Notes under the pieces: model-generated
The model's database searches: none
What the model was told of the DNA's origin: nothing
What the model saw: only the letters and a program-made list of their open reading frames with translations
Source: a virus
Lineage: Duplodnaviria > Caudoviricetes
Length of the DNA: 48,634 bases
Direction: 5' to 3' (one strand)
IMG/VR virus record: IMGVR_UViG_3300035548_000645
Location: 1-48,634 of that record
Made by a program: the position numbers and the translations under genes
Shown here: one piece after another, positions 1-45,813 of the stretch
Layout of the letters: every line of letters begins with the position of its first letter
Position numbering within the stretch: the stretch's first letter is position 1

Positions 1-1755
1 ATGGACGAGAAAGACCTTGCCCGTTCGCTGCTGGCCCGGTTCGAGGGGCTCGAGGAACTCCGCCGCCCCTGGGTGGACTCCTGGCGCGAGCTGGCCGAGT
101 ACATGCTGCCGAGGAAGAACAGCTTCCTCACCACCACCGCCACAACCTACAACCGGGGGCGGGCCGGGGATGAACGCATCTTCGACTCCACCCCCATGCA
201 TTCCCTGGAGATGCTGGCCTCGTCCCTGGGCGGGCTGCTGACCGACCCGGCCGCCACCTGGTTCGACATCCGCGCCCGCGACCCGGAGACCGGCGACTCG
301 GCCGAGGTGCGCGCCTTCCTGCAACAGGCCCGGGAGCGCATGGGTGCCGTGTTCAACAGCCAGGACACCGGGTTCCAGTCCAACGTGCACGAGCTTTACC
401 TGGACGTGGCCCTGCTGGGCACGGCCGTGATGTACGTGGAGGCGGACCCCGGGCAGGCGGTCCGTTTCTCCACCCGGCCCCTGGGCGAGGTCTTTGTGGC
501 CGAGTCCCCGCGCGGCATGGTGGACACGGTTTACCGGCGCTACGAAATCCCGGCCCGCCAGGCCCTGCGCGAGTGGGGCGACGGGCTGTCGGACGAGGCG
601 CGGCGCAAGGGCGCGGACAACCCGGACGAGCCCGTGGAGATCCTGCACGCGGTGTTCCCGCGCACGGACCGCGACCCCATGGGGCTCGGCGCGGCCAACT
701 TCCCCTACGCCTCGGTCTACCTGGAGGTGGCCACCGAGCACGTGCTGGAGGAGTCCGGGTACCTGGAGATGCCCTACCTGGTGCCCCGCTGGGCCAAGGC
801 GGCCGGGGAGATCTACGGGCGCGGGCCGGGCCAGACCGCCCTGTCCGACACCCGCGTGCTCAACGCCATGGGCCGCACCGCGCTCATGGCCGCCGAGAAG
901 ATGGCCGACCCGCCGCTCATGGTGCCGGACGACGGCTTCCTGGGCCCGGTCCGGTCCGGGCCGGGCGGGCTGTCCTACTACCGGGCCGGGTCCTCGGACC
1001 GCATCGAGTCCCTGCCCGTGCGCGTGGACCTGGCCGCCACCGAGGAGATGATGAACCAGCGGCGCGAGTCCATCCGCCGCATCTTCCTCAGCGACCAGCT
1101 CGCGCCCGAGGGGCCTGCGGTCACGGCCACCGAGGCGGTCATCCGCCAGGCCGAGAAGATGCGCGTGCTCGGGCCGGTCCTGGGCAGGCTCCAGACCGAG
1201 TTCTTGAGCCCGCTCATCCGGCGCGTGTTCCGCATCCTGCTGCGCGCGGGCGAGCTGCCCCGGTTCCCGGACGGGCTTACCCCGGACGACGTCGAGGTCC
1301 GCTATACCTCGCCCATGGCCCGCGCCCGCAAGCAGTCCGAGGCCCAGGGGCTGACCCGGACCATGGAGTACCTGGCCCCCCTGGTGGGCGGAAGCGACCC
1401 CTTCGGGATCATGGACAACTTCCGCACGGACCGGGTGGCCCGGCACGTGGCCGAGCTGTTCGACACCCCGTCGGATTACCTCAACTCCGAGGACGAGGTG
1501 GCCCAGGCGCGCGCGGGCAAGGCCAAGGCCGGGCAGTCCGCCCAGACCTCGCGCATGGTTGCCGACGTGGCCGCCATCGCCAAGACCCTGTCCGAATCGT
1601 ACACGGACCGGCCCAACGTGCTCACGGAACTGTGGGGGCTGCTCGCCCGGCGCGGCCAGCCCGGCCAAACCACGCCCGTGCCCGATCCCGTGCCCGATCC
1701 CGTGCCCGATCCCGAGGCCGCACCCGAAGCGCAGGAAGGCGTCCATGGAAACTGA
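1..1755 (+). CDS. T7/BPP-1-like portal (head-to-tail connector) of a resident phage-like element outside the prophage
   Basis: 584-aa ORF with podovirus connector motifs (RIFDST, GTAVMYVE, PYLVPRW..GEIYGRGPG, TATE..RQAEKMRVLGPVLGRLQTEFLSPLI). Confidence 0.9.
   Translation: MDEKDLARSLLARFEGLEELRRPWVDSWRELAEYMLPRKNSFLTTTATTYNRGRAGDERIFDSTPMHSLEMLASSLGGLLTDPAATWFDIRARDPETGDSAEVRAFLQQARERMGAVFNSQDTGFQSNVHELYLDVALLGTAVMYVEADPGQAVRFSTRPLGEVFVAESPRGMVDTVYRRYEIPARQALREWGDGLSDEARRKGADNPDEPVEILHAVFPRTDRDPMGLGAANFPYASVYLEVATEHVLEESGYLEMPYLVPRWAKAAGEIYGRGPGQTALSDTRVLNAMGRTALMAAEKMADPPLMVPDDGFLGPVRSGPGGLSYYRAGSSDRIESLPVRVDLAATEEMMNQRRESIRRIFLSDQLAPEGPAVTATEAVIRQAEKMRVLGPVLGRLQTEFLSPLIRRVFRILLRAGELPRFPDGLTPDDVEVRYTSPMARARKQSEAQGLTRTMEYLAPLVGGSDPFGIMDNFRTDRVARHVAELFDTPSDYLNSEDEVAQARAGKAKAGQSAQTSRMVADVAAIAKTLSESYTDRPNVLTELWGLLARRGQPGQTTPVPDPVPDPVPDPEAAPEAQEGVHGN
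1675..1715 (+). repeat. 12-bp tandem repeat (CCCGTGCCCGAT x3 plus partial) encoding PVPD repeats in the portal C-terminus
   Basis: Read directly from the sequence. Confidence 0.95.
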
Positions 1756-1890
1756 TCCGCTGGAACTGCACCGCGCGTACAAGCGGCTCTTTGACTGCGC
1801 CGACGGGGAGACGGTCATGCGCGACCTGGAAAAGCGGGGGTGCTTTCTGCGCTCCACCTTTTCCACCGACCCCGGCAGGACTCAGTTCCA
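1745..1890 (+). pseudogene. 5' part (codons 1-49) of a Bbp19-like small head gene, split by the prophage
   Basis: METDPLELHRAYKRLFDCADGETVMRDLEKRGCFLRSTFSTDPGRTQF overlaps the portal stop. The Y..LF....G..V..DL motif is typical of the gene after BPP-1-type portals. It continues in frame at 45730. Confidence 0.85.
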
Positions 1891-1912
1891 TAACGGACGC
1901 CGCTTGTGTCTA
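1866..1912. other. attL, core dinucleotide CA at 1889-1890
   Basis: Joining 1890 to 45732 restores the host ORF. The phage arms form an imperfect inverted repeat around CA. Confidence 0.85.
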
Positions 1913-1917
1913 AATCC

Positions 1918-3717
1918 TTAACCACGGCCCATCCCCTCGCTGTCTATGGGCAACCCCATGCGGTGCGCCCTGAATCGTCTGTAGTTCTCCAACGCCTCGT
2001 CCTCATTGTAATATCTGTTCTTCCCTGACTTCTTGGCCGCATCGATGTAGATGCCCTGCTGCACCTTGTGACAGAAGCCGGACACCGCCTCTCCATACGC
2101 CTTGGCCAGGGCGGTGGAGGTGTACTCGCCGCCGGGCTCCAGCCCCAGCTCCTCGATGGTCACGTCCTCGACGAACCGGAACACCGGCTCCACGTCCATC
2201 TCCATGGGCAGCGCCATGCGCACCACGCCCTCGACCGTGACGTAGAACTTCGGCCGCAGCGCCTCCAGCAGCTCCCGCTGCTCGTCGTGCGACCAGAATG
2301 GAAATTCACTGAACGCCGCAGCCAGGTTCCTGGCGATATCTTCCTGGGCGTCCATGTCCAGGTCCTTGGCCTCCTGGGTCAGCACGCGGATCCGCGCCTC
2401 GATGCCGTCGGCCTCGCGTTGGATGTCCTCGACTTTGCGGTCGAGATCCGCCTTGTCGAAACTGCCGTCGATGTAGAGCGCCAGCACGCGCCGCTTCTTG
2501 GCAGCCGCCTTGTCGCGCCGTTCGAGCAGCCGGGCCATTTCGGCCTGCCGTCGCTCCACGCCGTTGCGCTGGCGGATGTTCTCGATCTGCTCCCGCAGAT
2601 ACTCCTCGCTGGCCAGCCTGGTGGCAATGAACCGCAGCAGCAGCTCCTCCAAGGGCGCCTTGCGGAATTGGGTCGGCGATTCGCAGACCAGCCCCTTCCG
2701 TATGCCCCAGCTCGTGTGCGCCCTGCACCTGTAGTAGCCAAGCCCCTGCTTGGGCTTCTCCCGGCCCCCGGTGTACATGGGATGCCCGCACACGCCGCAA
2801 CGCACCATGCCGGCGAAGAGGTAGCGATCGCCCACGCCGGACTGCCGTTGAACAAAGATATTCTTTTTGTTGAGGATGTGCGCCTGCACCCTCCAGAACA
2901 GCGCCTCGTCGATGAGCGGCTCGTCGAACACCTTGACCCGGATCACGTCCTCGGGCGCGCGCTTCACCCTGCGCCGCCCCGCCTGCCTCCCGTCCTGCCG
3001 CACATACCGCTCGCCGCGTTTATAGGTGTCGTACACCCGAAACCCGATGTAGATCTCGTTGGTCAGGAGGCCTTTGGTCTGCCGCCGCCCCAGGCCCAGC
3101 CGCCGCCCGATCTCCGTGTAGTTGTGGACCCCGCCGTCATAGAGCGCGAACGCCTCGGCCACCAGCTGGGCGTCTTCGGTATACGACCAGGTCCGCGTCT
3201 TCTTGTCGTAGGCCACGCCCATGGGCAGTATGTGCGCACCACCGGCATGCTCCCCGCGCCGGCGCATGGCCTCCTTGGCCTCCATGGACCGCTTGAGGAT
3301 CTGCCGCCGCTCGTTGCCGGCCATGAGCGACTGGATGCCGCCCATGAGGAATCCCGCCTGGCTGGCCAGGTCCACCACCTGGTCGGGCATGTAGATCCGC
3401 GCCCCGGTGTCCTGGATGTCCTGGAGCAGCCCGAACGATCTGAAGTCGTCCGCGCGCAACAGCCTGTCGAAATCGGCGACCACCAGACCTTTGGCCCGGC
3501 CGGAGCGGAGGAGCACGAGGATGGCGGCCATCTCGGGCGTGTTCGCCGCGCAGGTGCCGGACACGTCGACCAGCTCCACGTGGTCGACCACGACCAGCCC
3601 ATGGCGCTCTGCGGCCACCCTGCAGGCAGCCTGCTGCCGGGCCAGTCCGGCCTTGCCTTCCACGGCCTGCTCGGCCGTGGAGACGCGCAGGAACTCCACC
3701 ACCGGAATATCAGGCAT
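1918..3717 (-). CDS. int: Large serine recombinase (integrase), 599 aa
   Basis: Start MPDIPVVEFLRVST (catalytic Ser), DRLLR motif, recombinase domain, zinc ribbon CGVC...YYRC...C, coiled coil. The ORF-track start at 3834 is probably too long. Confidence 0.95.
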   Translation of the reverse strand: MPDIPVVEFLRVSTAEQAVEGKAGLARQQAACRVAAERHGLVVVDHVELVDVSGTCAANTPEMAAILVLLRSGRAKGLVVADFDRLLRADDFRSFGLLQDIQDTGARIYMPDQVVDLASQAGFLMGGIQSLMAGNERRQILKRSMEAKEAMRRRGEHAGGAHILPMGVAYDKKTRTWSYTEDAQLVAEAFALYDGGVHNYTEIGRRLGLGRRQTKGLLTNEIYIGFRVYDTYKRGERYVRQDGRQAGRRRVKRAPEDVIRVKVFDEPLIDEALFWRVQAHILNKKNIFVQRQSGVGDRYLFAGMVRCGVCGHPMYTGGREKPKQGLGYYRCRAHTSWGIRKGLVCESPTQFRKAPLEELLLRFIATRLASEEYLREQIENIRQRNGVERRQAEMARLLERRDKAAAKKRRVLALYIDGSFDKADLDRKVEDIQREADGIEARIRVLTQEAKDLDMDAQEDIARNLAAAFSEFPFWSHDEQRELLEALRPKFYVTVEGVVRMALPMEMDVEPVFRFVEDVTIEELGLEPGGEYTSTALAKAYGEAVSGFCHKVQQGIYIDAAKKSGKNRYYNEDEALENYRRFRAHRMGLPIDSEGMGRG

Positions 3718-3886
3718 CGTTGTCCTTGGGCAGGCCGCAGATCTCTCGGGCCAGGGCGATAGCCATGCGCTGATCCTTCTCCTCGAAGGCCTTGCGCATG
3801 GCGTCAATCTTCTCGCTCCGCTTCCGGGCCACACTCAGCGCCACGGCCGCCACGCTGCCCTGGGGATTCATTTCGGTATTTTCCAT
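3694..3886. repeat. Direct repeat copy 1 (about 193 bp): 58-aa gene plus first 8 integrase codons
   Basis: About 90% identical (about 19 mismatches by hand count) to 7812-8004, offset 4118 bp. Confidence 0.95.
3710..3886 (-). CDS. 58-aa protein overlapping the integrase start; candidate recombination directionality factor (copy 1)
   Basis: MENTEMNPQGSVAAVALSVARKRSEK...KDNDA with AGGAG RBS; its stop overlaps the int start (ATGCCTGA). RDF role inferred from position only. Confidence 0.7.
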   Translation of the reverse strand: MENTEMNPQGSVAAVALSVARKRSEKIDAMRKAFEEKDQRMAIALAREICGLPKDNDA

Positions 3887-3961
3887 GCCTATCTCCTTTT
3901 GTCGCAGTCCACGTGTTTCATTTCGCCATTCATTGATTTGACGGCCAACGTCCCGGGGAGA

Positions 3962-4342
3962 ATGACTCTGTGACAGACAGAGCAGATTTCGCACCCAGAC
4001 GGTTTTACCGTGCTGCTGGGCTGGCCCAGATCCGTCCAACGCGGTCCCGGCGGCGGCAGCCCGCGCGCGATCCTGACGCCGCGCCTTGCCGACTACCTCG
4101 CGGCCCATTGCCACGCCCCGGCCACCATCGACTTGCCCATAAGCCGAACCACCATCAAGCGACTGCGCAAGCTGCTCGGGCAGGATTGGACGCTGGACAA
4201 CGAGCAATGGTGGCACGACCACAAGGCCGACCTGCTGGCGTCCACGCTGGCCCAATTTTGTCAGCGCCATGGCAAAAGCCAGGGCGCGGCCAGCCAGTGG
4301 CGTGCGGTGTTTGGTGGCAAACGGTGCAGTCATAAGTCTTAG
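3962..4342 (+). pseudogene. Possible HTH-type protein with an in-frame TGA at codon 4, or an intact 110-aa gene from GTG 4010
   Basis: ATG ACT CTG TGA then an open frame QTEQISHPDGFTVLLGWP...; HTH-like segments (ISRTTIKRLRKLLG, FCQRHGKSQGAASQWR). Confidence 0.4.
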
Positions 4343-4400
4343 TCCTTATCGCCTTCGGAAATATTCTCAGTTATTGTGTGTGTCGCCAGCACGCACAAGG

Positions 4401-4631
4401 TCATTTGTGTGTGTTGGGATTATCAGTTTGTATTATCGCGTCGGACAGCATGACCGAATTGTCGATCTCATCAAGCCGAGCAATGCGTTTACCGAAAGAG
4501 GATTCCCATAGGTCAGACTGTGCCGTCAGTGATGTTTCTGCATCGCCATAATCTTCGGCCACAATGTACGCCGTTCGATTGTAGTGGGCGTAAGGTCCGG
4601 ACTCTAAAATGGCTTTGAATAATTTCATCAT
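4401..4631 (-). CDS. Hypothetical protein
   Basis: Small ORF in a tightly coupled lower-GC leftward operon. Confidence 0.6.
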   Translation of the reverse strand: MMKLFKAILESGPYAHYNRTAYIVAEDYGDAETSLTAQSDLWESSFGKRIARLDEIDNSVMLSDAIIQTDNPNTHK

Positions 4632-4813
4632 TCACCTTCTTCGGTTGTATTCTGCGACTTTTCCAACTCTGCCGCTTTTTCAGCTAATTCCTTTGCCATT
4701 TTAATGGCTTCCAGTTTCATTTTGTCCGTCACGTATGACCAGACCATGACGACTGAAAAAAGTAGAAACGCGAAACCCAAGAGGGCAATAAATTCGCACG
4801 TTGTATCACTCAT
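4628..4813 (-). CDS. Small membrane protein
   Basis: One hydrophobic helix; stop overlaps the next start. Confidence 0.6.
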   Translation of the reverse strand: MSDTTCEFIALLGFAFLLFSVVMVWSYVTDKMKLEAIKMAKELAEKAAELEKSQNTTEEGE

Positions 4814-4837
4814 TGGCTGCCTCGGCGGTATTCGTGG

Positions 4838-5074
4838 TTATTTGCCATTTCCGCGTCGTATCAGGTTCCGCGCAGCCCAGACTATGTAAACGACGAAAAG
4901 GCCGTGCAGGGGAGCCGTGATGCGCGAATCAACCCACTTGGTTTCAACCATGTGGACCCATCCGGCCTGTCCAATGTAATCCTGATAGAGTCCCATGAGG
5001 TTGCCATAGAGCATAGCCCCCAGGAGCATAGCCCACAGAACGGCCTTGGTTGGTGTATTTACTTTTTCAAACAT
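4838..5074 (-). CDS. Small membrane protein with two predicted TM helices
   Basis: Two hydrophobic segments. Confidence 0.6.
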   Translation of the reverse strand: MFEKVNTPTKAVLWAMLLGAMLYGNLMGLYQDYIGQAGWVHMVETKWVDSRITAPLHGLFVVYIVWAARNLIRRGNGK

Positions 5075-5095
5075 GGCTAAATCTCATGTGAGTGG

Positions 5096-5353
5096 TTAAT
5101 CCGGCATCTTGCACAGCGGATGGGCGGGGCCGGATCGCGTGGCCATCTCCATCACCTCATTTGCGTACTCTGTATCGTCCTGGGCGGCCGCATTTGCATA
5201 AGATACCAGCGCTGCCTGGGCGTACTTGTCCTTGAGCTTGATGACGAAAAATTCATCTTCTGGCGTGTCGCCGTGTTGTGTTTCTCCGGTCCGGTTGTTG
5301 ATAAGAGAATACTTGCCCTTGCCGTCGTCGTTGACATTCCTGTCCAACTTCAT
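5096..5353 (-). CDS. 85-aa phage protein, possibly an Acb4-like cyclic-nucleotide sponge
   Basis: AGGAG RBS; pattern KY.LIN..TG...FFVI..KD..A.AAL..YA. Family resemblance is from memory and unverified. Confidence 0.5.
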   Translation of the reverse strand: MKLDRNVNDDGKGKYSLINNRTGETQHGDTPEDEFFVIKLKDKYAQAALVSYANAAAQDDTEYANEVMEMATRSGPAHPLCKMPD

Positions 5354-5376
5354 GTTTATCTCCTTATGCTGAGTTC

Positions 5377-5619
5377 CTAGTCCAACTCGTCAACGCCCAT
5401 TGACGGCTTACGCAAATCGGCGGACTTAAATCGACTCTGGAAGGATGGACAGTCGGTAATGTCTTCTCCGTCGTCGTTACGGAACGCCGGACCATCAACG
5501 TCAATTTCCTGCCCTGTCTCACCACAGTACCCGCAGGGGATGATTCCCATAAGATAATCCTCGCGCTGTTCCCATTCGGGTTCATGGACGCACTGGTTGC
5601 ATCTGCTCATTTCTTTCAC
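5377..5619 (-). CDS. Small Cys-rich (CxxC...CxxC) protein
   Basis: CNQC and CGYC motifs; first gene of the leftward island operon. Confidence 0.6.
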   Translation of the reverse strand: MKEMSRCNQCVHEPEWEQREDYLMGIIPCGYCGETGQEIDVDGPAFRNDDGEDITDCPSFQSRFKSADLRKPSMGVDELD

Positions 5620-5660
5620 CTGTTTCCCTATTTTTTGACGTTTGTTTATAACTATACATT

Positions 5661-5676
5661 TTTATTACATAATAAA
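5661..5676. promoter_or_regulatory. AT-rich palindrome TTTATTA-CA-TAATAAA, operator-like
   Basis: Perfect 7-bp inverted repeat in the divergent intergenic region. Confidence 0.5.
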
Positions 5677-5700
5677 TCTGCAAAAAAACGAAATTACTTG

Positions 5701-5738
5701 TTGACTTTGACCCCGCTTGTCCCTATATTGAGGACAAG
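5701..5738 (+). promoter_or_regulatory. Sigma70 promoter TTGACT-17-TATATT with inverted repeat CTTGTCC/GGACAAG straddling the -10 box
   Basis: -35 at 5701-5706, -10 at 5724-5729, repeat arms at 5716-5722 and 5732-5738, AT-rich upstream region. Confidence 0.8.
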
Positions 5739-5785
5739 AACAACGCAGAAGGGCAACCGCTGCAAAAACATGGAGGGAAACCCCA

Positions 5786-6151
5786 ATGACCAACCCCACG
5801 CAAATCCCCAACAACACCATCCGCGAAGTAGCCTGGAACGCTGGCGTCCTGAAGCAGTTTACCATTCCCGGTTTTTTTGGTCTTGAACTGACCGGGACTG
5901 ACAAGCAAGTGGAGTTTACCGCGTCCGTCATCACCAAGTGGGCCGAAAAGCTCGACAGGGTTATGCCTGACTATCCCGCCGACGGCCTCGGCGAACTGCT
6001 TCGGGCTATGCCGCTGGATTGCTCTTGGTGGCTCGACAACCGCAAGTGGATATTGCATCAGACTCTACCGGGCACCCTGGAAATGGCGGCGAAGCAGGGA
6101 GTCATAGATATCCCGACCATCCAGGACATCATCACCCGTTACGGTATCTAG
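5786..6151 (+). CDS. Hypothetical protein (121 aa), anti-defence candidate
   Basis: GGAGG RBS; first gene after the operator-bearing promoter. Confidence 0.75.
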   Translation: MTNPTQIPNNTIREVAWNAGVLKQFTIPGFFGLELTGTDKQVEFTASVITKWAEKLDRVMPDYPADGLGELLRAMPLDCSWWLDNRKWILHQTLPGTLEMAAKQGVIDIPTIQDIITRYGI

Positions 6152-6158
6152 ACATAAC

Positions 6159-6182
6159 AGGGAGAGTCGAGAGGCTCTCCCT
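6159..6182 (+). other. Intergenic RNA hairpin with GAGA tetraloop
   Basis: AGGGAGAGTC-GAGA-GGCTCTCCCT; no strong U tract. Confidence 0.5.
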
Positions 6183-6229
6183 TAACCCGCCCGGAGGGAA
6201 ACCCCGGCAAACCAATGGAGGGAAACCCC

Positions 6230-6535
6230 ATGCACACGACCAAGTACAACAACATGATGGCAGCGTATGATGGATTTAAGGGCCACGTCACCGTGGCCGC
6301 CGTCCGTGCACAAATCCCGGACGAACTCACGGACCGCTTAACCGGCCATGAGCTGGGCCTCGTCATGAGCGCCATCAACTCGGCATACCACAATGGCAGG
6401 GCGTCTACCGGGGCCGAGGTCTACGACGCCAATCCGGTGGACGGGGCCGTCTGGATCAACGCCATCAACCGCTCCGTCGAGTGGCGGCAGATTGACGGCG
6501 ATCTCCAGTGCATCGCGCTCCCGGAACACCAATAA
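6230..6535 (+). CDS. Hypothetical protein (101 aa), anti-defence candidate
   Basis: GGAGGGAAACCCC RBS then ATG 6230; small, mildly acidic. Confidence 0.75.
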   Translation: MHTTKYNNMMAAYDGFKGHVTVAAVRAQIPDELTDRLTGHELGLVMSAINSAYHNGRASTGAEVYDANPVDGAVWINAINRSVEWRQIDGDLQCIALPEHQ

Positions 6536-6548
6536 CCTCGGAGACAAC

Positions 6549-7343
6549 ATGATCTACGACATCACGGCAGAGGAGGCGGCCCGCCGTATCCAGGTCCATG
6601 GCTCCACCTTGCGCGGGGCAATCCAGCGCGGGCTTTGTCAGGGCGAGGAGGTTGACGGCCACTGGTACACGTCGGAGGCCGCAGCAAGCGCCTGGAAGGC
6701 CTCACACTACCGCAAAGCCGACGCCGGGCTCCTGCTCTCCCCCACGGCCCATACCAAATGGACCGAAGGGGACCTTGAGAGGCTCCGCCGTCTCAAAACG
6801 GATGGGGCCAGCAATGCGGACATCGCCAAAGAGCTTGGCCGATCCGAGGCATCCATCAAGACCAAATGGAGCAAGATGGACAAGACTGGCCCGGCGGCCA
6901 CCAGGGATGATGCCCGCCAGAGGGTTGTCCGGGAGGCCAAGGCGGTCCTGTCGGCCAGCAAACCGGCCAAAGACCGGTATCAAGAGCGTCGGCAAATGGA
7001 GCGCGAGGGCCGCGTGCGCCTCCGCATGCACCCGGATGCCGTGGCGATCCTTGGGCGCGAGGCGCGCCGGCGCGGCGTCAAACTCGGTCGTTACCTCACC
7101 TTGGCCTATTGCGCGGCCATGGCCGATCCATCGCTCTTTGCCCTTGGACGGGCCGAGGCAGAGCAACAGGTGATCCGGACGCTTGAGTCCAGGGCGGACC
7201 GGTTGAGGATAGACCTCGATCCGGTCACCAAAACCATGATCCAATCCAGCGCCGAGGCACTGGGCGTCAGCCTGTCCAGGCTCATGACCGAAGCTGGCTT
7301 TGCCGTCTTGATCAGGCCCGACACCATCAACATAAGGACATAG
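6549..7343 (+). CDS. Multi-domain DNA-binding protein (winged HTH, Myb/GcrA-like HTH, two RHH-like units), 264 aa
   Basis: GGAG RBS then ATG 6549; segments ITAEEAARRIQVHGSTLR, WTEGDLERLRRL...ADIAKELGRS, VRLRMHPD...GVKLGRYL, LRIDLDP...GVSLSRLM. Confidence 0.7.
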   Translation: MIYDITAEEAARRIQVHGSTLRGAIQRGLCQGEEVDGHWYTSEAAASAWKASHYRKADAGLLLSPTAHTKWTEGDLERLRRLKTDGASNADIAKELGRSEASIKTKWSKMDKTGPAATRDDARQRVVREAKAVLSASKPAKDRYQERRQMEREGRVRLRMHPDAVAILGREARRRGVKLGRYLTLAYCAAMADPSLFALGRAEAEQQVIRTLESRADRLRIDLDPVTKTMIQSSAEALGVSLSRLMTEAGFAVLIRPDTINIRT

Positions 7344-7347
7344 TAGC

Positions 7348-7665: not shown

Positions 7666-7694
7666 TCAACAATCCTATGCAATTATCAGAGAGC

Positions 7695-7723: not shown

Positions 7724-7729
7724 GGACTT

Positions 7730-7802: not shown

Positions 7803-7811
7803 CGCATGTCG

Positions 7812-10081: not shown

Positions 10082-10091
10082 TTTCCCTCCC

Positions 10092-36982: not shown

Positions 36983-38496
36983 GTCGCTTTCTCCTCCTCA
37001 GCGAGGCCGAGTTCCAGGTCCCGCCTGCGCTCGGCCGCGCGGATCTCGGCCACTTCTTGGCCGTCGCCGCCCTGTTCGGCCACCACGTCGGCGTGGGTCA
37101 TGATGTTGGCTTCCATGCCCCTGATGGAGGCCACGATCTCCTTGACGGGATCGATATAGCCCCGGGCGGGACCGATCCAGCGGGTGCCGAGATAGGCGTG
37201 CTGGGCGTCGTAGAAATCCGGAGCGCCTGCCGGGAGCGTCCAGAGGCCGCGCAGGAACGCCTCCTCCTGGACCATGGCCCAGTTGATCTGGCAGAAGTGG
37301 GCACCGGCCCAGGAGCGGTAGATCAGGTAGACCCGCCACGCTTCGAGCAGGGCGGCCCTGGCGCTGGAGTAGTTGGTCTGCGAGAAGTCCTTGGCCAGGA
37401 CCTCGTAGGGCATGCCCGTGGCCGCGGCCATGGCGCGCAGGACCAGGCGGGCGAATGCCTCGAAATTGTTGCCCGGATGATTCGATTCCAGAATGAACGG
37501 CTTTTCGTTCGGCGACCCGTACAGGATGGAGCCCGGCGCATAGTTCTTGTGGTACGCCGGGTTGGGGTTGCCGTCTTCGTCGTAGGGTTCGGGGGCGGTG
37601 TAAGCCCCGGCAGCGGCCGCCGCGTTGGGGTCCTGCGAGGCGATGAACACCGGGATGGACGCGGCCATGATCTGGCCGATGAGGCTGTAGTCGAACGAGT
37701 CGTCCAGGAGCCGGTAGAACTTCATGGCCGGAGACAGGACGCTGCGACCCCGGTACTGCTCCTCGCGGGTAAGGCGGAACCCGTGCAGCATGCCGGGCCG
37801 GTGCCCCTTCCTGGCCGGAATCCGCGAATAGCTGGAGCTGGAACGCAGCTCGCCGCCGTCGAACCGGCTGGGGTTGCTCACCCAGTAGGCTATCGGGCGG
37901 CCGTCGTCGTTGACCTCCACGCCGTCGATGACGTTGTCCCTGTCGAAGAACTCGAACGGGGTGGACAGCCGCGACGGGTGAATGTCCTGCAGGGCATAGG
38001 AGAACGTGCGCTCCGGATACGTCTTTTCGTCGAGCATCCGGGGCAGAAAGAGGAATTCGCCCTTGGTCAGCACGGAGTGCAGGGCGAGGAACTGCAGATC
38101 GTTGAAGGTGGCCAGCCCTCGGGAGTGGGCCTCGGTGTTCCAAATCTTCCAGACGCGCTCCATGCTCTCCTGGAGTTCGTTCGCCTGGTCTTCGGTCAAC
38201 CCAAGGGCCTTGCGGTCGACCCGCGCCTGCGGCTTGAGGCCCGGCCCGACCACGTTGACCGTCATGGAATCGATGACGGACGCGGCGTTCGGGTTGTTGT
38301 CTACGAGGTCTTCGGCGCGGCGGGCGATGACTTCACGCTCGCGCGCCTCGCCGTCCTGGGTGGTTCGCGGCGAGTGCCAGTTCGACATCGTGCCCCGGAA
38401 GGTCCCGGCGGCGGAACGGACCCGGCCAAGGCCTCGCGGCTTGACGGTCCTGCGGCGGGCGGCGGCCTGGGATCGGGCGGAAGGAAAACCGGTCAT
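36979..38496 (-). CDS. Portal protein (lambda gpB family)
   Basis: RAEDL..NNP, GVE....GRP.AYW, NYSSARAALLE, YIDPVKE. Confidence 0.95.
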   Translation of the reverse strand: MTGFPSARSQAAARRRTVKPRGLGRVRSAAGTFRGTMSNWHSPRTTQDGEAREREVIARRAEDLVDNNPNAASVIDSMTVNVVGPGLKPQARVDRKALGLTEDQANELQESMERVWKIWNTEAHSRGLATFNDLQFLALHSVLTKGEFLFLPRMLDEKTYPERTFSYALQDIHPSRLSTPFEFFDRDNVIDGVEVNDDGRPIAYWVSNPSRFDGGELRSSSSYSRIPARKGHRPGMLHGFRLTREEQYRGRSVLSPAMKFYRLLDDSFDYSLIGQIMAASIPVFIASQDPNAAAAAGAYTAPEPYDEDGNPNPAYHKNYAPGSILYGSPNEKPFILESNHPGNNFEAFARLVLRAMAAATGMPYEVLAKDFSQTNYSSARAALLEAWRVYLIYRSWAGAHFCQINWAMVQEEAFLRGLWTLPAGAPDFYDAQHAYLGTRWIGPARGYIDPVKEIVASIRGMEANIMTHADVVAEQGGDGQEVAEIRAAERRRDLELGLAEEEKAT

Positions 38497-38714
38497 CGCA
38501 CGATCTTCCCCTGGACCGCCACCGGGCCGGAATTGCCGTCATAGGCGTCCAGCTCGCGCTTCAAATACTGGAGGTTCGCCCGAATCTTGTCCGGATCCTT
38601 GTATTCGACGCTGTCCCCGTCAACGGTGTTGTTGGGAGAAAGGGCCTGCATGAGAGCCGTCTTGTTGGCCTCAATCTGCTCTACGATCTCCTCTCTGCTG
38701 CTCCAGATAGACAT
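38493..38714 (-). CDS. Head completion protein (gpW-like)
   Basis: 73 aa between terminase and portal; DG.SVEY motif. Confidence 0.7.
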   Translation of the reverse strand: MSIWSSREEIVEQIEANKTALMQALSPNNTVDGDSVEYKDPDKIRANLQYLKRELDAYDGNSGPVAVQGKIVR

Positions 38715-38718
38715 GCCC

Positions 38719-38781
38719 CGACATTAATCCCGCCTCCGGATTAATGTCGTGGACGTCATGGACGTTATGGACGTCATGGAC
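38719..38781. promoter_or_regulatory. Candidate late promoter/operator: 12-bp inverted repeat plus 3.5 copies of TGGACGTYA
   Basis: CGACATTAATCC/GGATTAATGTCG at 38719-38749; 9-mers at 38750, 38759, 38768 and a partial copy at 38777. Confidence 0.65.
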
Positions 38782-38817
38782 AGAAATGTGTGCTTTTTGC
38801 GAAAAACACACCTTGGG

Positions 38818-39015
38818 CTACGCCACTTTCTGTTTCTCCAGGTAGGCATCGATGTCTGCTTGCGGCACACGAATCCCCTTGCTTTTCCCAAGGCGGAACG
38901 CATTGGGGAATGCCCCGCCGTCCACCAACTGGTAGAACATGGACTTGGAACACCCCAGCTGTTTGATCGTCTGCTGCCAGTTCAATGCCGGGCCCAGATC
39001 TTTCTTCTCTTCCAT
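38818..39015 (-). CDS. AlpA/Xis-like winged-HTH protein, candidate late regulator
   Basis: LNWQQTIKQLGCSKSMFYQLV..G.FP.AFRLG...IRVP. Confidence 0.8.
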   Translation of the reverse strand: MEEKKDLGPALNWQQTIKQLGCSKSMFYQLVDGGAFPNAFRLGKSKGIRVPQADIDAYLEKQKVA

Positions 39016-39024
39016 GCTGTCTCC

Positions 39025-40983
39025 CTATTTGCCGAACCATCCCGGACGCCAACCGCCCAGAATATCCGCTTGCGTTACAGGTCGTTCCTTCACTACCGCC
39101 GCCTTCTTCCGTTTTATCTTCGGGGGCTTCCGGTTGGCCCCGCCCAGGTGGTACCAGGCCGCCCGCCCGTAGTTCTCGCAATCCCAGTAGTCCACCTTCT
39201 TCCCCGAGGGCTGCACCCACACCTGACGCTCATCGTCGAAATACTCGGCGCACATCTGCGCGGCATAGTCGTGCGGCATCTCCTCCTTGTTGTAGAGGTG
39301 GAAACCGCCGGGGTCGCCCGGCTCCACCGACATGGCCGTGGACAAGTCGTCCTTGAAGAATTTGTTGTTGATGTTGACCAGCGTGATGCCGCCCGGAATC
39401 TTTTTCTTGGTCTTCGGGAAATACTCGATGTTGGAAAACGTCAGCGGCGCATTGAGCGTGTCCCGGCCACGGATGGGCAGCATCTTGCCGCGATGCTTTG
39501 CCGCCAGCTGATAGATTTCCTTGGTCCGGTGTCCCATCGAGTCCCAAAAAGTCAGCTCGACCGGGTATTCATTGCCTTCGCTGTCCCGATACATCTGCCC
39601 CCAGAGAATCTCCTCCATGTTCGCGATGGTCAGCCCGAGACCTACCCGCACCCTCCATGATTCTTCGGCCTCTCCGAATCCAAAGGCCAATATGACGTAG
39701 GGCAGGCTCCTGTCCTGGGTGTCCACCCCGGCCACCAGTCCGGCAACACGCGGCACTCCGTCAACCGGCCCGGGCACCACCATGCGGGGCCGGTCATCGC
39801 ACATGGCCCACACCTTGTCCTCATCCCGTTGCACTTGGACCTCTTCCCACGGCTCGGCCTCGTATCCGTTCTTGAAATCCTTGGCCTTCTGCTTCCAGTC
39901 CGCGCCGCCGTACTTCTTTGTGCCGCGCAGGAACGCCGCCAGGACCTCGGACAGCGATACGAACCTGGACAGCCAAGCCGGGGTGTGGAACCCGATGCGC
40001 CGGGGCCGGTACTCCCGCAAGTAGGCGAACATCTCCTTGCCTGTGACCAGGTCGCGGTACTCTCCCATGGCCACGGCGCGGTCGCGGTCATGGTCATCCC
40101 ACTTGCAGCCCATGTTCTCGCATTCGTACCAGCCGAGCAGCTCGGCCTCGATCTTCTCCGGGTCGCGCACGTCCACCGGCATCTTGAACTGCTTGAAGTG
40201 CATCCGCTGGTACGCGCCGCAATGGGGACACCTGACCATGTAATGAAAAACGACCTGCGCCCCCTGGAGCGCCTGCCAGATTTCGCCCTGGGGGATGGTC
40301 GGTGAGGAAATCTTGAAAATCTTGCGTGACCACTTGTAGGTCCTTGTCCGCTTCTCGCCCAGCGAGATGGGGTCGGCTTCCTTTTTCGACGCCACCAACG
40401 GATACTTGTCCACCTCGTCGAAGATGATGATCTTGACCGGCTTGTTTGCCAGGGATGACGGCGACTTCGCCCAGGCCGTGTAGATGGCCATGTGCTGCAG
40501 GTTGATGCGCGACGACGAAAAGTCGTCCTCGCTGCCGGTCAGGAACGACGACAGCCGGGCGCTCGGTTCGAGCAACCCCTTGCGGATCCGCTTGGTGATG
40601 TTGTGCTTGGCCGTCTCCCGGTCGGGATAGACGAGCATGGCCGGGCCGGGATCACGGTCGATGGCGTAGCCGAGCAGGGTGTTGACGGCCTCGGTCTTGC
40701 CCACCTGCGGCGCGGCGCACCAGTCCACCTCCTGGACACCGGGGACATAGGCCGCGTCGAGAATGCCGGTCACGTAAGGGGCGGTGTCATTCTTCCACGG
40801 TCCGGGCAGGGCGGATTCTTCGTTGAGAACACGGTGCCTTTCCGCCCACTCACTCGGCCTGATCCGCTTGCGCTTGCGGAGCTGCTGCCGTTCAGCCTTG
40901 CACGGAGTTATGACCATCTGGTCGCCGACGTGGCCGCCCGGGATCCACTTGGGGTCGATGAAGATTTTGCAGTTAACCTTCAT
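39025..40983 (-). CDS. terL: Terminase large subunit (lambda GpA family)
   Basis: SEWAE..R, APQVGKTE Walker A, FDEVDKY Walker B, SSP, CPHCG, AGVDTQ, DYWDCE.Y. Confidence 0.96.
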   Translation of the reverse strand: MKVNCKIFIDPKWIPGGHVGDQMVITPCKAERQQLRKRKRIRPSEWAERHRVLNEESALPGPWKNDTAPYVTGILDAAYVPGVQEVDWCAAPQVGKTEAVNTLLGYAIDRDPGPAMLVYPDRETAKHNITKRIRKGLLEPSARLSSFLTGSEDDFSSSRINLQHMAIYTAWAKSPSSLANKPVKIIIFDEVDKYPLVASKKEADPISLGEKRTRTYKWSRKIFKISSPTIPQGEIWQALQGAQVVFHYMVRCPHCGAYQRMHFKQFKMPVDVRDPEKIEAELLGWYECENMGCKWDDHDRDRAVAMGEYRDLVTGKEMFAYLREYRPRRIGFHTPAWLSRFVSLSEVLAAFLRGTKKYGGADWKQKAKDFKNGYEAEPWEEVQVQRDEDKVWAMCDDRPRMVVPGPVDGVPRVAGLVAGVDTQDRSLPYVILAFGFGEAEESWRVRVGLGLTIANMEEILWGQMYRDSEGNEYPVELTFWDSMGHRTKEIYQLAAKHRGKMLPIRGRDTLNAPLTFSNIEYFPKTKKKIPGGITLVNINNKFFKDDLSTAMSVEPGDPGGFHLYNKEEMPHDYAAQMCAEYFDDERQVWVQPSGKKVDYWDCENYGRAAWYHLGGANRKPPKIKRKKAAVVKERPVTQADILGGWRPGWFGK

Positions 40984-41518
40984 CGCCGAGCACCACTTCG
41001 ATATTCTTCATGCTGGCGTACCGCGTCGCGATATCGTCGAACATATTGGTCAACTCCCGGATCAGGTCTCCCGTCTTCCTGGGATCACCGCCCACCAGCT
41101 CGATGAACTCCGCTCCCCGTTTCTGGACCTCGGACTTGTACTCGGACGACATGATCCCGGCCCGTGCGCCTATCTCGATTTCGACCCGCCCCCGATCAAT
41201 GAGCTTGGCCTCTTTCTTCTGCCGCTCAATCCGCAGAATCTGCGCCTTCTCCTGCGCCTGAATCAGTTCCGCATCCGCCTTGGCGTCGGCCCGCTCCCTA
41301 TCCTCCCGGCTCAACGTCTTCCTCGACTGGATCAACTTGACGTGGTTCTTCGCGTATGCCTTCAGGACATCAGCCTCGAACACGCCATCGGCAGACTTGC
41401 CGACCTTTCCTTCGTTGGTGTGGCGGCTGAAATTCGACCTGTTTGAGGCATACCCCTCGTCCACCAGGAACGCGATTGCCTCCGTTTGTGTCTTGAACGT
41501 GCGGCGATCCTTAACCAT
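40973..41518 (-). CDS. Probable terminase small subunit
   Basis: N-terminal HTH plus coiled coil; overlaps the terL start. Confidence 0.7.
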   Translation of the reverse strand: MVKDRRTFKTQTEAIAFLVDEGYASNRSNFSRHTNEGKVGKSADGVFEADVLKAYAKNHVKLIQSRKTLSREDRERADAKADAELIQAQEKAQILRIERQKKEAKLIDRGRVEIEIGARAGIMSSEYKSEVQKRGAEFIELVGGDPRKTGDLIRELTNMFDDIATRYASMKNIEVVLGDEG

Positions 41519-41804
41519 GCTGATCCTCCTGAGCCGGCAGCCGCAGCCGTTTGATGTTGACCGATTTCTTGACCCCGTAACCAAACACGTCCACGTACAG
41601 CGCTTTCTTTCCGCCCTTGATCTCGCGCTCGTACGGTTCCCCCTCGCACATGACCTGGACCCACTGCATCCGTCCGCCCACCTTGGCGGTCATGGAACAC
41701 CGGACACCCCTAAATACTCCTGTTTCGTCAGGAACTTTTAGACCCTTGCCGCTCAACACGGCGTCCAGCTCCTCGGCCGTCAGCTTGATGTCTTCCGTTT
41801 TCAA
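41511..41804 (-). CDS. Hypothetical protein
   Basis: Coupled between primase and terS. Confidence 0.6.
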   Translation of the reverse strand: MKTEDIKLTAEELDAVLSGKGLKVPDETGVFRGVRCSMTAKVGGRMQWVQVMCEGEPYEREIKGGKKALYVDVFGYGVKKSVNIKRLRLPAQEDQHG

Positions 41805-43231
41805 GACGAGACCTCCAGCGGCTTCATGAAGTTCCGGCTGTTGACAACCAACTCACCCACCTCCTGGATCCACTTCCTGACCACAGGCCGGTGGGCCAGT
41901 ACGGCAACCCAGCCGTGATATTCCTCAGGTCCCTGACACCCCAGCAACGCGCCGGATTCTCCGACATGGATGTCCGTTCCGCTGACGGACAGGATGACGC
42001 GCAATTCCTCGATGTCGTCGGGGATCTGGTATTTCTTCGCCGTAGGCAGAGGCGCACTTTCTACCGTTCCTTTGGGGGCCAAGGCCGACACGTCGATGGC
42101 CGGCGCAGTCAGGGACCTGAGCCAATCTCCCAGGGCGGCGCGGCCGAGCTGCTCGACCAGTTCACCGGGATCCTTGCCCACGGGCACCGGAGTGCGACGG
42201 CACTGCGGAAACCGCTCACCCCACCAATGGCGGAACTTGTTTCCATGCTTCTCGCCTTTCCCTTGCGGCTCGAAGTCCAGGGCGTTGAGGATGTGCCTGG
42301 CTCCCGATAACCACTCAGCCGCCTGGATGTCTGGGTATGCTGTCAGAGTGCCCATGGAGCAGAAGCCGACGCCGTCTACCTTAGCGGCTGCGATGGCCAG
42401 CCCGTCCAGGGCGGCTTCCACCACAACGTAGTCCCGGGCGTTAGGTGTGATCATGGTCACTTTCTGGTTTGACCCAGCCACAAGCTTGTACTTGTCGTCG
42501 TCCGGCGGCACGTCAGAATTGGGACGTCGCACGCGCACGGCTGCCAGTTCGCCATCCCGAAAATTCGGGATGACCAGCCCCCGGGGCAGCCAGATGGATT
42601 TAGGCCGTCCGTTGTCATTGAGAATGCGCGACAGTCCCCACCCCTCTCGGCTGCGGTAGTCGCAGGGTGGACGGTTGTTTCGCTGCGGCTTGCCGGCGTG
42701 CCACCCCAACCTGGATTCTCGGGCGATGGAGAGCGGCACTCCACGGCCTTCAAGCCACTGCACCAGGTGAGGGTTGCGCTCCAGCTGCGCCGCGCACTCG
42801 TTCACGAACTTCAAGGCGTGCTCCCGCCATTTCTCCGGCGGCAGCTCCACGGGCAGCAGATCGGCCAGCTCCCGTCCGACCCTTGCCTGCTGCGGCGCCG
42901 GTCTCGGCTTCGGCATACTGCGTTGCGCCGGGGCCTCGCCCTCTACCCCGAGAAACTCGAAAATTTTTGTCCAATCCCACCCTTCGATGTCCACCAACCA
43001 CTGAATGTAGTCGCCGGAGATGTCGCACTGGCGGCACCAGTACCCGCCACGCGCCCCGGCCTTCACGGCCAGCTCGCCGGAGGGCTCCTGGTCTGGAAAG
43101 ACGCGGAAGCGATCCTTGCCGCCGCAGACGGGACACGGCCCCTGGTATTCCCCGCGGCCGCCGACGGGGGCCTGGAAGCCTGTGCCACCCACCCGCGCCC
43201 GCACCAGATCCACCAGCTCCGGAGCCATCAC
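41801..43231 (-). CDS. DNA primase (zinc-binding domain plus TOPRIM-like domain)
   Basis: GPCPVCGGKDRF, YWCRQC...GD, VVVEA.LD, ALDF, GKDPGE. Confidence 0.88.
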   Translation of the reverse strand: MMAPELVDLVRARVGGTGFQAPVGGRGEYQGPCPVCGGKDRFRVFPDQEPSGELAVKAGARGGYWCRQCDISGDYIQWLVDIEGWDWTKIFEFLGVEGEAPAQRSMPKPRPAPQQARVGRELADLLPVELPPEKWREHALKFVNECAAQLERNPHLVQWLEGRGVPLSIARESRLGWHAGKPQRNNRPPCDYRSREGWGLSRILNDNGRPKSIWLPRGLVIPNFRDGELAAVRVRRPNSDVPPDDDKYKLVAGSNQKVTMITPNARDYVVVEAALDGLAIAAAKVDGVGFCSMGTLTAYPDIQAAEWLSGARHILNALDFEPQGKGEKHGNKFRHWWGERFPQCRRTPVPVGKDPGELVEQLGRAALGDWLRSLTAPAIDVSALAPKGTVESAPLPTAKKYQIPDDIEELRVILSVSGTDIHVGESGALLGCQGPEEYHGWVAVLAHRPVVRKWIQEVGELVVNSRNFMKPLEVSS

Positions 43232-43239
43232 GCCACCCC

Positions 43240-43500
43240 CCGCTGCCTATCGTCCGCATGGTCCGCTATGGTCCAGCCAAAGGTCCACGCCTTGAAGCAA
43301 GGTGTGGCAACGGTTCCGGGAAATATGGGACTATAGGGACCAAATTCTTTTTTCATCTTTTTGAGACCTTTCTGATTCAAGATATTTTTGTATAAGGGGT
43401 TATACTCCCTACGCTCCCTTGCACGTATCCATTACCCCTGATTTCAGGGGGTTGAGACCCGGACCATAGGCCGGACGATAGGTGGACGATGCGGACCTTT
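43240..43500. other. Candidate replication origin
   Basis: Intergenic AT-rich core flanked by oppositely oriented GTCC / GGAC-containing repeats. Confidence 0.65.
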
Positions 43501-43503
43501 GCG

Positions 43504-45345
43504 CTAATCTTCCGGGTGGAACCCATCCTGGTGTTGCTGTTTGAGCTGGAGGCCTATGTAGACCATCGTCCCGGACTTGATCCGCTCGAACCCCTTGTCA
43601 TTCATCCAGTTCCCGAACTTTTTCTGAGCGGGAGGAAACTTGCCGACCCGCTTGTGGTACCACTCCTCGAAAACGCTATAGACCTTGGACGCGCCGACCC
43701 TGAGGTTCTCGCCGATCTCACAGCACTCGAAGAGAAATTCGCCCAGGGTGTCCTCGCCTTCACGGTACTTGTCCGTCGCCTCAGTCACGACCCGAGGCGG
43801 GCAGAGTCCGAATTCCTTCCACGCCAGGTACCCCTCGACCAGCCAGGCCAGAATCCCAGGCAGGCAAGCCGCCAGCTTCTTATCCAGATCGGGATCTATT
43901 TTCCGCTCCCATGGCTGGGTCGGTTCGCCATGGACGAACGAGATCCGGTGCGGGATGGCCATGACGCGCTTCCAGAACGCGTAGTCCGTGGCCGGCGCTG
44001 AAGGCAGGTTGTTCGTCAGCAGGAACATGAGGTGGGTCGGGTCGAACGTCGTCGGATACTTGTCGTTCGGATGGCGGCCGGTCAGCGGGTCGCCGCCCGT
44101 CAGCCACTTGACCCGCTCGATGGAGAACTTGCGCCCTTCGGCGGTCTCCGATGCCCAGGCCAGGCGCAGCCCCTTGAGGGACATGATCGACGGCGTCGGC
44201 GAATCCGCCGAGCGGTTCACGCCCTGGTCGAGCAGCAGCTCGGCGGGCAATCCTCCGGCCAGCGGCCCGAGCACGGAATAGATGGTGTTGAGCAGCGTCG
44301 ATTTACCGTTGCGGCCGCGGCCGGTCAGGATCGGCAGGATGTGGTGCGGGGTGGCCCCGAGCAACGCATAGCCGAGCAACCGCTGGACAAACTTGATCAA
44401 TTCCGTCTCGACCTCGTTTGTCTCCGGGTTGGTGTAGACGCCGTTCAGAAATTCGATCCAGGGTTTGCGGTCAAAACCCGCCCCCCTCCACTCCACAGGC
44501 GCTGCGCGAACCATCCAGTCCTCCGGACTGCCTGCGCGGAACTTGCCCCCGTCCTCCAGGTCGATGATGCCGTTGGCCACGGGCAGCAGGTGGGGGTTGT
44601 TGTCGAGCCAGCTGGACTTGCAGTTGAGCGGCATGCCCGTGATGGAACGGGCCTTGGTCAACACTCCGGACTCGCGCGTCGGCGACCGCAGCTGGCTGAT
44701 CCGCTTCTTGACGCTCTTGGTCCGCTCGGCGAGCTGGCTTTCAAGGGAGTTGATGTCGCCCTTGATGTGCGCCTTGACTGAATCTTCCGTGGCCTGCTTC
44801 AGGTCGTTCTGGAGGACCTCGATCCGCCGCCGGAACATGGAGACCGTCGTCACCTGGTGGGCGTGCCAGTAGGCAAGCGCCACGTGTTCCACCAGGGAGT
44901 GGGCGAAGACGCTGGCCTCGTCCATCTCCCAGTGATGGCCGTTGAACCGGAGGGTCTCCGGAGTCTTGCGGTCGCCGCCGGTGGTGATGTTGATGGCCAT
45001 CTGCCCCCGGTGCATGGCCGCGTAGAGCTCGGCGTCTCCGGTCACGTTGCGGCTCATGCACTCCAGGATGAACGACGGATCGAGGTTCACCCAGGGCGCC
45101 ATGAGTTCCGTCTCCACAGGTCCGCCATTCGGCTCGACCGGATCGGCCGCAGCCGGTGCCGGAGAGATCAGCGCTTCCAGCTCGGCCCGTAACCGGGTCA
45201 GCTCGCCGAGGGTTCTCTCGTCGTACTTCGCGCCCGGCTTGACGCAGACGTCCCACACCCCGTCATCGGTCTGCCGAAGCTCAAATCCTTCTGGGAGCTC
45301 CAAGTCAGGCCGCTTCAGCATGCTCTTATCGTCAGACACGAACAC
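43504..45345 (-). CDS. P4-family/D5-like SF3 helicase-primase subunit
   Basis: D5_N region (LLPVANGIIDL), Walker A GRGRNGKS, LKGLRL..ASE, VKWLTGGD, TNNLP. Confidence 0.93.
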   Translation of the reverse strand: MFVSDDKSMLKRPDLELPEGFELRQTDDGVWDVCVKPGAKYDERTLGELTRLRAELEALISPAPAAADPVEPNGGPVETELMAPWVNLDPSFILECMSRNVTGDAELYAAMHRGQMAINITTGGDRKTPETLRFNGHHWEMDEASVFAHSLVEHVALAYWHAHQVTTVSMFRRRIEVLQNDLKQATEDSVKAHIKGDINSLESQLAERTKSVKKRISQLRSPTRESGVLTKARSITGMPLNCKSSWLDNNPHLLPVANGIIDLEDGGKFRAGSPEDWMVRAAPVEWRGAGFDRKPWIEFLNGVYTNPETNEVETELIKFVQRLLGYALLGATPHHILPILTGRGRNGKSTLLNTIYSVLGPLAGGLPAELLLDQGVNRSADSPTPSIMSLKGLRLAWASETAEGRKFSIERVKWLTGGDPLTGRHPNDKYPTTFDPTHLMFLLTNNLPSAPATDYAFWKRVMAIPHRISFVHGEPTQPWERKIDPDLDKKLAACLPGILAWLVEGYLAWKEFGLCPPRVVTEATDKYREGEDTLGEFLFECCEIGENLRVGASKVYSVFEEWYHKRVGKFPPAQKKFGNWMNDKGFERIKSGTMVYIGLQLKQQHQDGFHPED

Positions 45346-45454
45346 TCCTCATCGAATCAGCCGCACCGGCATTCACATCAACACAGCCACCACATCCACA
45401 TAGAATCACAGCGAATTTCCCATTTTCCCACCCAACCAAAAAAATCAACACGCC

Positions 45455-45510
45455 CACCCCCCGCGCTGATGGTGACCCCTGTATCTGAGGCCTTAGGAAG
45501 GACCCGTAAG
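45455..45510 (-). other. Candidate cos site (cosQ-like GGGTCCT plus cosN-like segment)
   Basis: Minus strand TTACGGGTCCTTCC...TACAGGGGTCACCATCAGCGCGGG resembles lambda TTACGGGTCCTTTCC...TACGGGGCGGCGACCTCGCGGG. Confidence 0.6.
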
Positions 45511-45662
45511 GGCAGGGCGGCCCCATTGGATGATTGGGATGATTCTCTGTGGGGGAGGGAGAGGGGCAGCGGATGGCGGCAACCCCCCATGAAGAAATAA
45601 GGATGCGACCGTCCCGGTCGCGATGATGGAACGATGCTGACCAGGCCCTGCGGGGAAGGCAC

Positions 45663-45686
45663 AAAAAAAGCACCGATATATCGGGC
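45663..45686 (-). terminator. Probable minus-strand terminator just inside attR
   Basis: Palindrome CCGATATATCGG (45673-45684) followed by T7 on the minus strand. Confidence 0.6.
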
Positions 45687-45707
45687 TGTTCTGGTGTGTG
45701 AACGTTT

Positions 45708-45752
45708 CTAATACAAGAGACTGCCGCTACAGGAGGGTCGGCGCTCACTGGT
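45708..45752. other. attR, core CA at 45730-45731
   Basis: Left arm is an imperfect inverted repeat of 1891-1909; the right side resumes the host gene. Confidence 0.85.
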
Positions 45753-45813
45753 GCTGCACGTCAAACACATGACCGACGAAACCAACTTCATCGACAAGGA
45801 GACACAACGATGA
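45730..45813 (+). pseudogene. 3' part of the split Bbp19-like gene (QEGRRSLVLHVKHMTDETNFIDKETQR*)
   Basis: EGRR.LVL motif typical of the family; its stop overlaps the scaffold start (ATGA). Confidence 0.85.

Follow-up and report, generated by a model that had tools for sequence, protein, structure and literature searches.

Why would a temperate phage settle inside a gene that looks as if it belongs to another phage? The question is raised by a virus record of 48,634 bases (IMG/VR record IMGVR_UViG_3300035548_000645), which we call the window, meaning the whole stretch that was analyzed; the host genome beyond it is not part of the record. In the window, a long-tailed prophage with a large serine integrase parts the two halves of a small Bbp19-like gene that follows a portal gene. 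An earlier note, made from these letters alone, described the arrangement as a phage inside a phage. We find instead that the prophage precisely splits a member of a gene set that is vertically conserved throughout the host genus, that the capsid gene of this set is in turn interrupted by a sister prophage, and that the integrases concerned are nested among relatives targeting comM, a DNA-uptake gene of the Mg-chelatase family. Disabling the particle set is our best reading of the insertion. What is new is an integrase subclade residing in host particle genes and nested among comM-targeting relatives, in which the closest relative of the window integrase lies in the capsid gene.

The prophage precisely splits a Bbp19-like gene

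The window opens with a portal gene of the T7 gp8 type, encoding a head-tail connector (1..1755, plus strand; PF12236, E 4e-151; phrog_332). Its stop codon (1753-1755) is overlapped by the 5′ part of the Bbp19-like gene (1745..1890, plus strand), which comprises 48 codons plus the core; the 3′ part (45732..45813, plus strand) lies beyond the prophage. The dinucleotide CA is found on the plus strand at both boundaries, at 1889-1890 (attL, with a phage arm at approximately 1891-1912) and at 45730-45731 (attR, with a phage arm at approximately 45708-45729). As the earlier note had claimed, joining the flanks across CA gives a single open reading frame (ORF) of 75 codons, 1745..1890 plus 45732..45813, which begins across the portal stop and ends in an ATGA that also starts the following gene (45810). 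The first 48 residues match positions 1-37 of 61 of PF25181 (Phage_Bbp19), a name that derives from Bordetella phage BPP-1; by its position, the product is a putative head protein. Open frames also arise from many other joins, so that the ORF by itself is weak proof, and we accept the reconstructed junction because homologues match it.

The whole gene is present at 13 of 15 related loci, the other two being a locus that ends within the portal gene and one with no match, and it is unbroken at 30 of 30 further portal loci. At the closest empty locus, L001, the protein is 89% identical and codon 49 is the one formed by the join, as it is at two other loci. Contigs from runs X3 and X5, which belong to the same study, align with the window from 45730 on and diverge exactly there, and their loose ends correspond to window positions 1859-1888 with one mismatch. 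These contigs are the empty site in near-identical strains, and like the homologues they match the junction that had been reconstructed. In runs X1 and X2, which may be the source of this DNA, one contig each crosses the attL junction; no excision branch was seen at either junction in the X1 and X2 contigs, which drop rare variants and make this absence uninformative.

The arms of the reconstructed attP are symmetric at 13 of 19 positions, in agreement with the earlier hand count, and 26 of 20,000 random arm pairs reached at least 12. The locus thus has the two-base common core, the imperfect inverted repeat at attP and the exact restoration of the target that mark prophages in which a large serine recombinase disrupts a gene. 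The consequence for the gene is less simple than the truncation first described. The portal is indeed separated from the scaffold by 44 kb, but in the lysogen the broken frame reads through to a stop at 1919-1921, giving a 58-residue product that keeps a conserved GRR motif in register and has the last 27 native residues swapped for 10 others. The loss falls in the third predicted helix (residues 43-63) of an AlphaFold model of an intact Bbp19 orthologue, which has three helices and a mean predicted confidence (pLDDT) of 89. This model had no Foldseek match at E 0.001 (best VIA Z 5.4), and Atlas gave Bbp19 clusters only. Upstream, the proline-rich tail at the 3′ end of the portal gene contains a short tandem repeat (1677-1715) that varies among relatives.

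Pfam and PHROG matches identify the inserted element (1891..45729, minus strand) as a lambda-like, long-tailed prophage that would form a circle of 43,841 bp if excised. It encodes primase, TerL, portal, protease, decoration, capsid, holin, tube, tape measure and J proteins, and none of its proteins matched a sheath in either database. The integrase (1918..3717, minus strand; 599 residues) contains resolvase, recombinase and zinc-ribbon domains (PF00239, PF07508, PF13408), and its gene ends 27 bp from the attL core.

The target gene belongs to a domesticated, host-inherited set

Named relatives place the host in Pseudodesulfovibrio, the portal being 87% identical to that of L001. Within 42 genomes of this genus, portal, capsid and a strong match to the nozzle were each found in 41, and TerL in 40 at the level of orthologues, nearly all as single copies with open frames; across a family sample of 251 genomes, the capsid was found in 42. 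The genes stand alone or in small groups amid housekeeping genes such as rlmN. In some genomes (G261, G240, G004) they almost adjoin one another, and in others hundreds of kilobases lie between them; in G176, for example, the capsid lies at 2,431-2,474 kb, the portal at 2,653 kb, TerL at 2,897 kb and the nozzle at 2,957 kb.

In 23 genomes, median pairwise dN/dS was 0.165 for the portal, 0.095 for the capsid and 0.227 for bbp19 (maximum 0.43), and all usable pairs fell below 0.45, indicating purifying selection. Distances in these genomes tracked those of rpoB (rank correlation 0.63-0.81, a level reached by 0 of 500 permutations), and none of the 12 supported splits in the protein trees conflicted with rpoB, 8 being common to both. 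The target is a domesticated, vertically inherited gene set of the T7 superfamily, and vertical conservation, which the earlier note had raised, is borne out. Intact head, tail and packaging genes inherited vertically under purifying selection are the genomic signature of a gene transfer agent (GTA), and the set likely encodes a particle of this kind. Among named sequences, its capsid comes closest to those of Pelagibacter and Vibrio phages (33-42% identity), which we take to be short-tailed. A small terminase was not identified in the set, and no replication or integration gene was recognized among the ORFs flanking the examined modules, a judgment made largely by eye at those modules and not genome-wide.

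Taken literally, a phage inside a phage would mean that the flanking genes are a rival T7-like prophage hosting a second one. Contiguous prophages of this type do exist, in six genomes of the genus, which lends the idea some footing. Their portals, however, are only 29-30% identical, whereas the L001 portal that so closely resembles the window's is a single-copy host orthologue, and the portal orthologues follow the rpoB tree. The flanking genes, scattered among housekeeping genes, are also unlike those contiguous prophages, and we consider a rival prophage very improbable. What survives of the proposal that the phage disables a rival or domesticated particle is its second half. One of the contiguous prophages, L082 (G002:C1:2124001-2144000), has a portal 29% identical and counterparts in five other genomes of the genus; its two presumed ejection proteins had matches in 0 of 5 genomes, in a search that had no positive control and is for that reason uninformative.

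The integrases in particle genes are nested among comM-targeting relatives

Nine genomes of the family hold an integrase of this type, seven of them at comM and two at the capsid gene. In G176, the integrase is 74% identical to that of the window and belongs to a prophage of 42,003 bp. This prophage interrupts the capsid gene near codon 214, with a GA core that is placed by the symmetry of attP (12 of 19). The attP arms of the two prophages are identical at 12 and 14 of 24 positions, and their attB sites agree moderately, at 8-10 of 24 positions per arm. In G101, an integrase of 49-50% identity abuts the capsid gene from approximately codon 62. Metagenomes contributed 17 loci, with comM as the target at 10 and no readable target at 7. 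Among viral contigs, scans with the integrase as a single protein gave no relatives, and an alignment-based scan gave four loci, one at comM, one at the capsid gene (the same as G101) and two without a readable target. A survey of related integrases, suggested by the earlier note, led, where a target was readable, to the capsid gene of this set (G176, G101) and otherwise to comM.

We built a careful integrase tree of 20 rows, rooted on five deeper comM rows. It leaves out duplicates (L129, L130, L142), partial or frameshifted sequences (L125, L134-L136, L138-L141, L144, L145) and also L016, P0003 and P0006-P0026. The three particle-targeting integrases, together with two whose site is not mapped (P0004, P0005), form one clade (support 100/99) nested among 15 comM rows. 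Because G176, G101 and G001 each retain comM as an open frame of full length, the move away from it was not forced by its loss. Unlike the others, three deeper integrases (L126, L132, L133) lie next to the C-terminal part of comM and share its orientation, which points to a second site or orientation within comM.

Prophages that target competence genes are already published (PMC10083194, PMC12378983, PMC12637031); serine integrases are enriched in competence genes, 12.4% of them targeting the Mg-chelatase gene (PMC10083194), and ComM also serves the integration of DNA delivered by RcGTA (PMC12378983). The elements described there resemble the window's in their large serine integrase, two-base core and symmetric attP and in striking a gene-exchange function, and direct relatives of the window integrase sit at comM. 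The window's subclade differs in having left comM for three sites in two genes of a phage-derived set, which would be the donor side if the set is a GTA. The simplest reason for such a move is that both targets serve gene exchange, which is able to delete prophages. We give an about even chance to the reading that the host set is a GTA and that the integrase lineage moved from comM to particle genes since blocking assembly would cut this exchange. Its extension of the competence-gene logic to a GTA is a step that we infer and hold to be evenly balanced.

The same sites might have been reached without any benefit. Conserved yet dispensable genes are safe, lasting targets, and an integrase could have drifted among look-alike sequences. 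The moderate likeness of the two mapped attB sites would fit such drift, as would the dispensability of the set, most of which G277 lacks, and the sample is three. Yet all three mapped sites fall among some 14 genes that make up an estimated 0.3% of a 3.7-Mb genome, spread over two of these genes and occurring in both orientations; two more independent chance hits would have a probability of about 1e-5 if changes of site are independent, as we assume; and every other mapped site of the wider clade lies in comM. Neutral landing is in our view unlikely.

Comparison with helper-embedded satellites and the possibility of a switch

Phage-inducible chromosomal islands (PICIs) embedded in helper phages offer a close parallel, in that one integrase clade repeatedly evolves new sites in late genes and excision restores the gene (Tommasini, Mageeney and Williams 2023, PMC10111431). 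The window's element, in contrast, is a complete phage (42-44 kb, taking the two mapped prophages together) with a serine integrase and a full lambda-like morphogenesis module rather than a satellite; its target is scattered and host-inherited, with no inducible helper prophage, and orientation varies. Membership among helper-embedded PICIs was considered and rejected on account of the full virion gene set and the lack of a helper. The words "serine" and "GTA" are absent from the main text of PMC10111431.

The prophage of Listeria comK, which disrupts its target much as the window's element does, reportedly acts as a switch. An excision-controlled switch, by active lysogeny or helper-embedded timing, had also been put forward for this locus; here the prophage would leave as the particle programme starts and so gate or exploit production. 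Excision does restore the gene exactly, and there is precedent in helper-embedded satellites that delay the interrupted late gene until they excise (PMC10111431) and in the comK prophage, which is listed in PMC12378983. The prophage, however, encodes head, tail, lysis and replication functions itself and needs no helper. Its integrase occurs in 1 of the 42 genus genomes while the set is intact in the rest, which argues against a standing part of a circuit, and it lies opposite to the operon that it interrupts in the window but in the same direction in G176, where bbp19 is intact. We found no evidence for a switch and think it improbable.

A shared promoter-like box and a stranded scaffold gene

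Upstream of the portal operon, a two-part, promoter-like box is present in 28 of 29 cases; for the capsid gene the count is 29 of 31, for the nozzle gene 11 of 12 and for rpoB 0 of 29, by a pattern derived from the very upstream regions in which it was then counted. Genome-wide in five genomes, all nine exact matches precede particle or Rhs-type genes; a looser pattern gave seven matches in two genomes, one of them without such a gene, and the control gave two. A holin-like gene is also found behind the box. None of 30 scaffold orthologues has it directly upstream. In the window, the gene that follows the split one (45810..46667, plus strand; phrog_3742, phrog_458) is scaffold/protease-like, its role being suggested by position. 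Because it shares its ATGA with the Bbp19 stop and has no box of its own, the insertion is predicted to be polar. No sigma-70-like promoter was seen immediately upstream of the stranded gene, and one weak site lies at 45378-45406. At L081 (in G101) and L010, the box stands directly before bbp19, which keeps this gene within the regulon even where it is separated from the portal.

These features suggest how a particle-disabling insertion would work. Damage to Bbp19, combined with a scaffold gene left 44 kb from the operon's box, would prevent heads from being made, and excision would restore the operon, most likely merely as a by-product of lytic induction. The particle may carry host DNA, and the phage could gain from silencing it in three ways: it would be cured less often through recombination with empty-site DNA among kin, its host would escape lysis by particle release, and its own DNA would not be packaged into host particles.

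Polymorphic proteins point to a possible second cargo

Behind the scaffold gene lies a gene for a polymorphic protein (46731..47885, plus strand) with a conserved N-terminus of approximately 87 residues and a variable C-terminus, here M15-peptidase-like (PF08291, E 0.008, below the cut-off; Atlas look-alikes), which is a candidate cargo. It is followed by an ORF with a hydrophobic N-terminus that is cut by the window end (47882..48634, plus strand); this ORF has no Pfam match and may encode an immunity partner. The N-terminal domain occurs in 32 of the 42 genus genomes with unrelated C-termini. At most of the loci examined (L199, L203, L196 and L197 included) it comes immediately after the scaffold or the capsid module, and in G176 and G281 it is joined to an Rhs/YD core in a gene that follows the particle box. 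The polymorphic MuF toxins that temperate phages encode are said to have a conserved N-terminus and variable C-termini beside head genes, followed by small variable genes. The layout at 46731-48634 is the same, but the N-terminal domain has no match in Pfam, MuF included, and belongs to a domesticated set.

Such genes raise the prospect that the particle mainly carries or co-releases antibacterial polymorphic proteins, of Rhs type and others, lysing its producer, and that the phage stops a costly programme and not gene exchange. The position of the domain behind the structural modules, its Rhs/YD fusions and the holin-like gene behind the box all agree with this. TerL and portal, which serve DNA packaging, are nevertheless conserved as well as the capsid; the domain has no match in 10 of the 42 genomes, and G277 keeps it without portal or capsid. 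Toxicity is putative, given a peptidase match below the cut-off, and a protein cargo leaves the descent from comM-targeting integrases unexplained. We regard a mainly protein-carrying particle as rather doubtful, yet a serious rival. A combined version, in which the Pseudodesulfovibrio particle transfers DNA, has polymorphic toxins as a second cargo and became the donor-side target of an integrase lineage that had used the recipient-side comM, is conceivable though rather unlikely.

Weighing the GTA reading

Several observations weigh against a GTA silenced by its prophages. The set is known here from its genes, and the particle, its packaged DNA and its expression are all predicted. The cases number three, two further clade members have no genomic context, and G101 is half-shown, since its draft genome did not yield the first ~61 codons of the capsid gene. 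The set is dispensable, given single frameshifts in TerL (G261) and in the nozzle (G260, G270) and the loss of portal, capsid and TerL in G277. Three nucleotide trees of 14 genomes had one to three conflicts with rpoB, which are gone in the protein trees of 23 genomes. TerL carries the 5′ part of the box in 12 of 12 cases and the −10-like part in 0 of 12, and in four of the nine genome-wide matches the box precedes Rhs-type genes, some of them short, which points to protein cargo. The GRR motif retained in the 58-residue product means that some Bbp19 function may survive. Finally, a GTA acts via donors, so that silencing production should shield a prophage less directly than breaking the recipient's comM. 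As an observation apart, G277 (L198) keeps a tube A gene behind the shared box, a 61-residue nozzle remnant and the polymorphic domain, and is in effect a natural loss mutant.

Among known GTAs, RcGTA, with its multilocus genome (PMC11409702), and the podovirus-like FpGTA (PMC12946183) share with the target set intact genes for structure and packaging, a spread over several loci and vertical inheritance, and, as judged largely by eye beside the modules examined, the lack of a recognizable integrase or replication gene. The target set is more scattered, and Rhs-type genes use its box. Dd1 of Desulfovibrio desulfuricans, to which the earlier note had pointed, is alike by description only: its putative island (Ddes_0702-0725) forms one cluster (PMC5701242) with Ddes_0720 as the predicted small terminase, TerS (PMC6854486), whereas the target set is dispersed. 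Literature searches combining Bbp19 with portal, Desulfovibrio with GTA and BPP-1, and Pseudodesulfovibrio with gene transfer agent gave no match. We found no paper on this set or on prophages in GTA genes; the supplementary target tables of PMC10083194 and PMC10111431, which could hold such sites, lay outside the search.

The locus bears on why hosts keep GTAs. If phages evolve to break GTAs as they do competence genes, the particles must harm prophages, which would support the curing hypothesis, and the natural pair of lysogen and empty site allows that hypothesis to be tested. Were the particle to carry both DNA and toxins and the integrases to have switched to the donor side, target switching by integrases would become a predictive tool for finding GTAs, and GTAs would belong within the conflict between hosts and prophages. 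The analysis also points to an unstudied particle system within the core gene content of a widespread sulfate-reducing genus, and it yields two serine integrases with mapped attB and attP.

Further observations on the prophage

Within the prophage, an adenine methyltransferase gene lies beside a radical SAM gene (8262-10099). In runs X1 and X2, loose ends resembling clustered regularly interspaced short palindromic repeats (CRISPR), which we take to be of type I-C, lie on either side of a match to the integrase gene (window 2758-2798); a spacer against this phage is likely present in these samples. Record 26 of run X3 is a low-depth contig with the 3′ end of a related integrase gene (window 1949-2067) and a different flank, resembling the G176 type.

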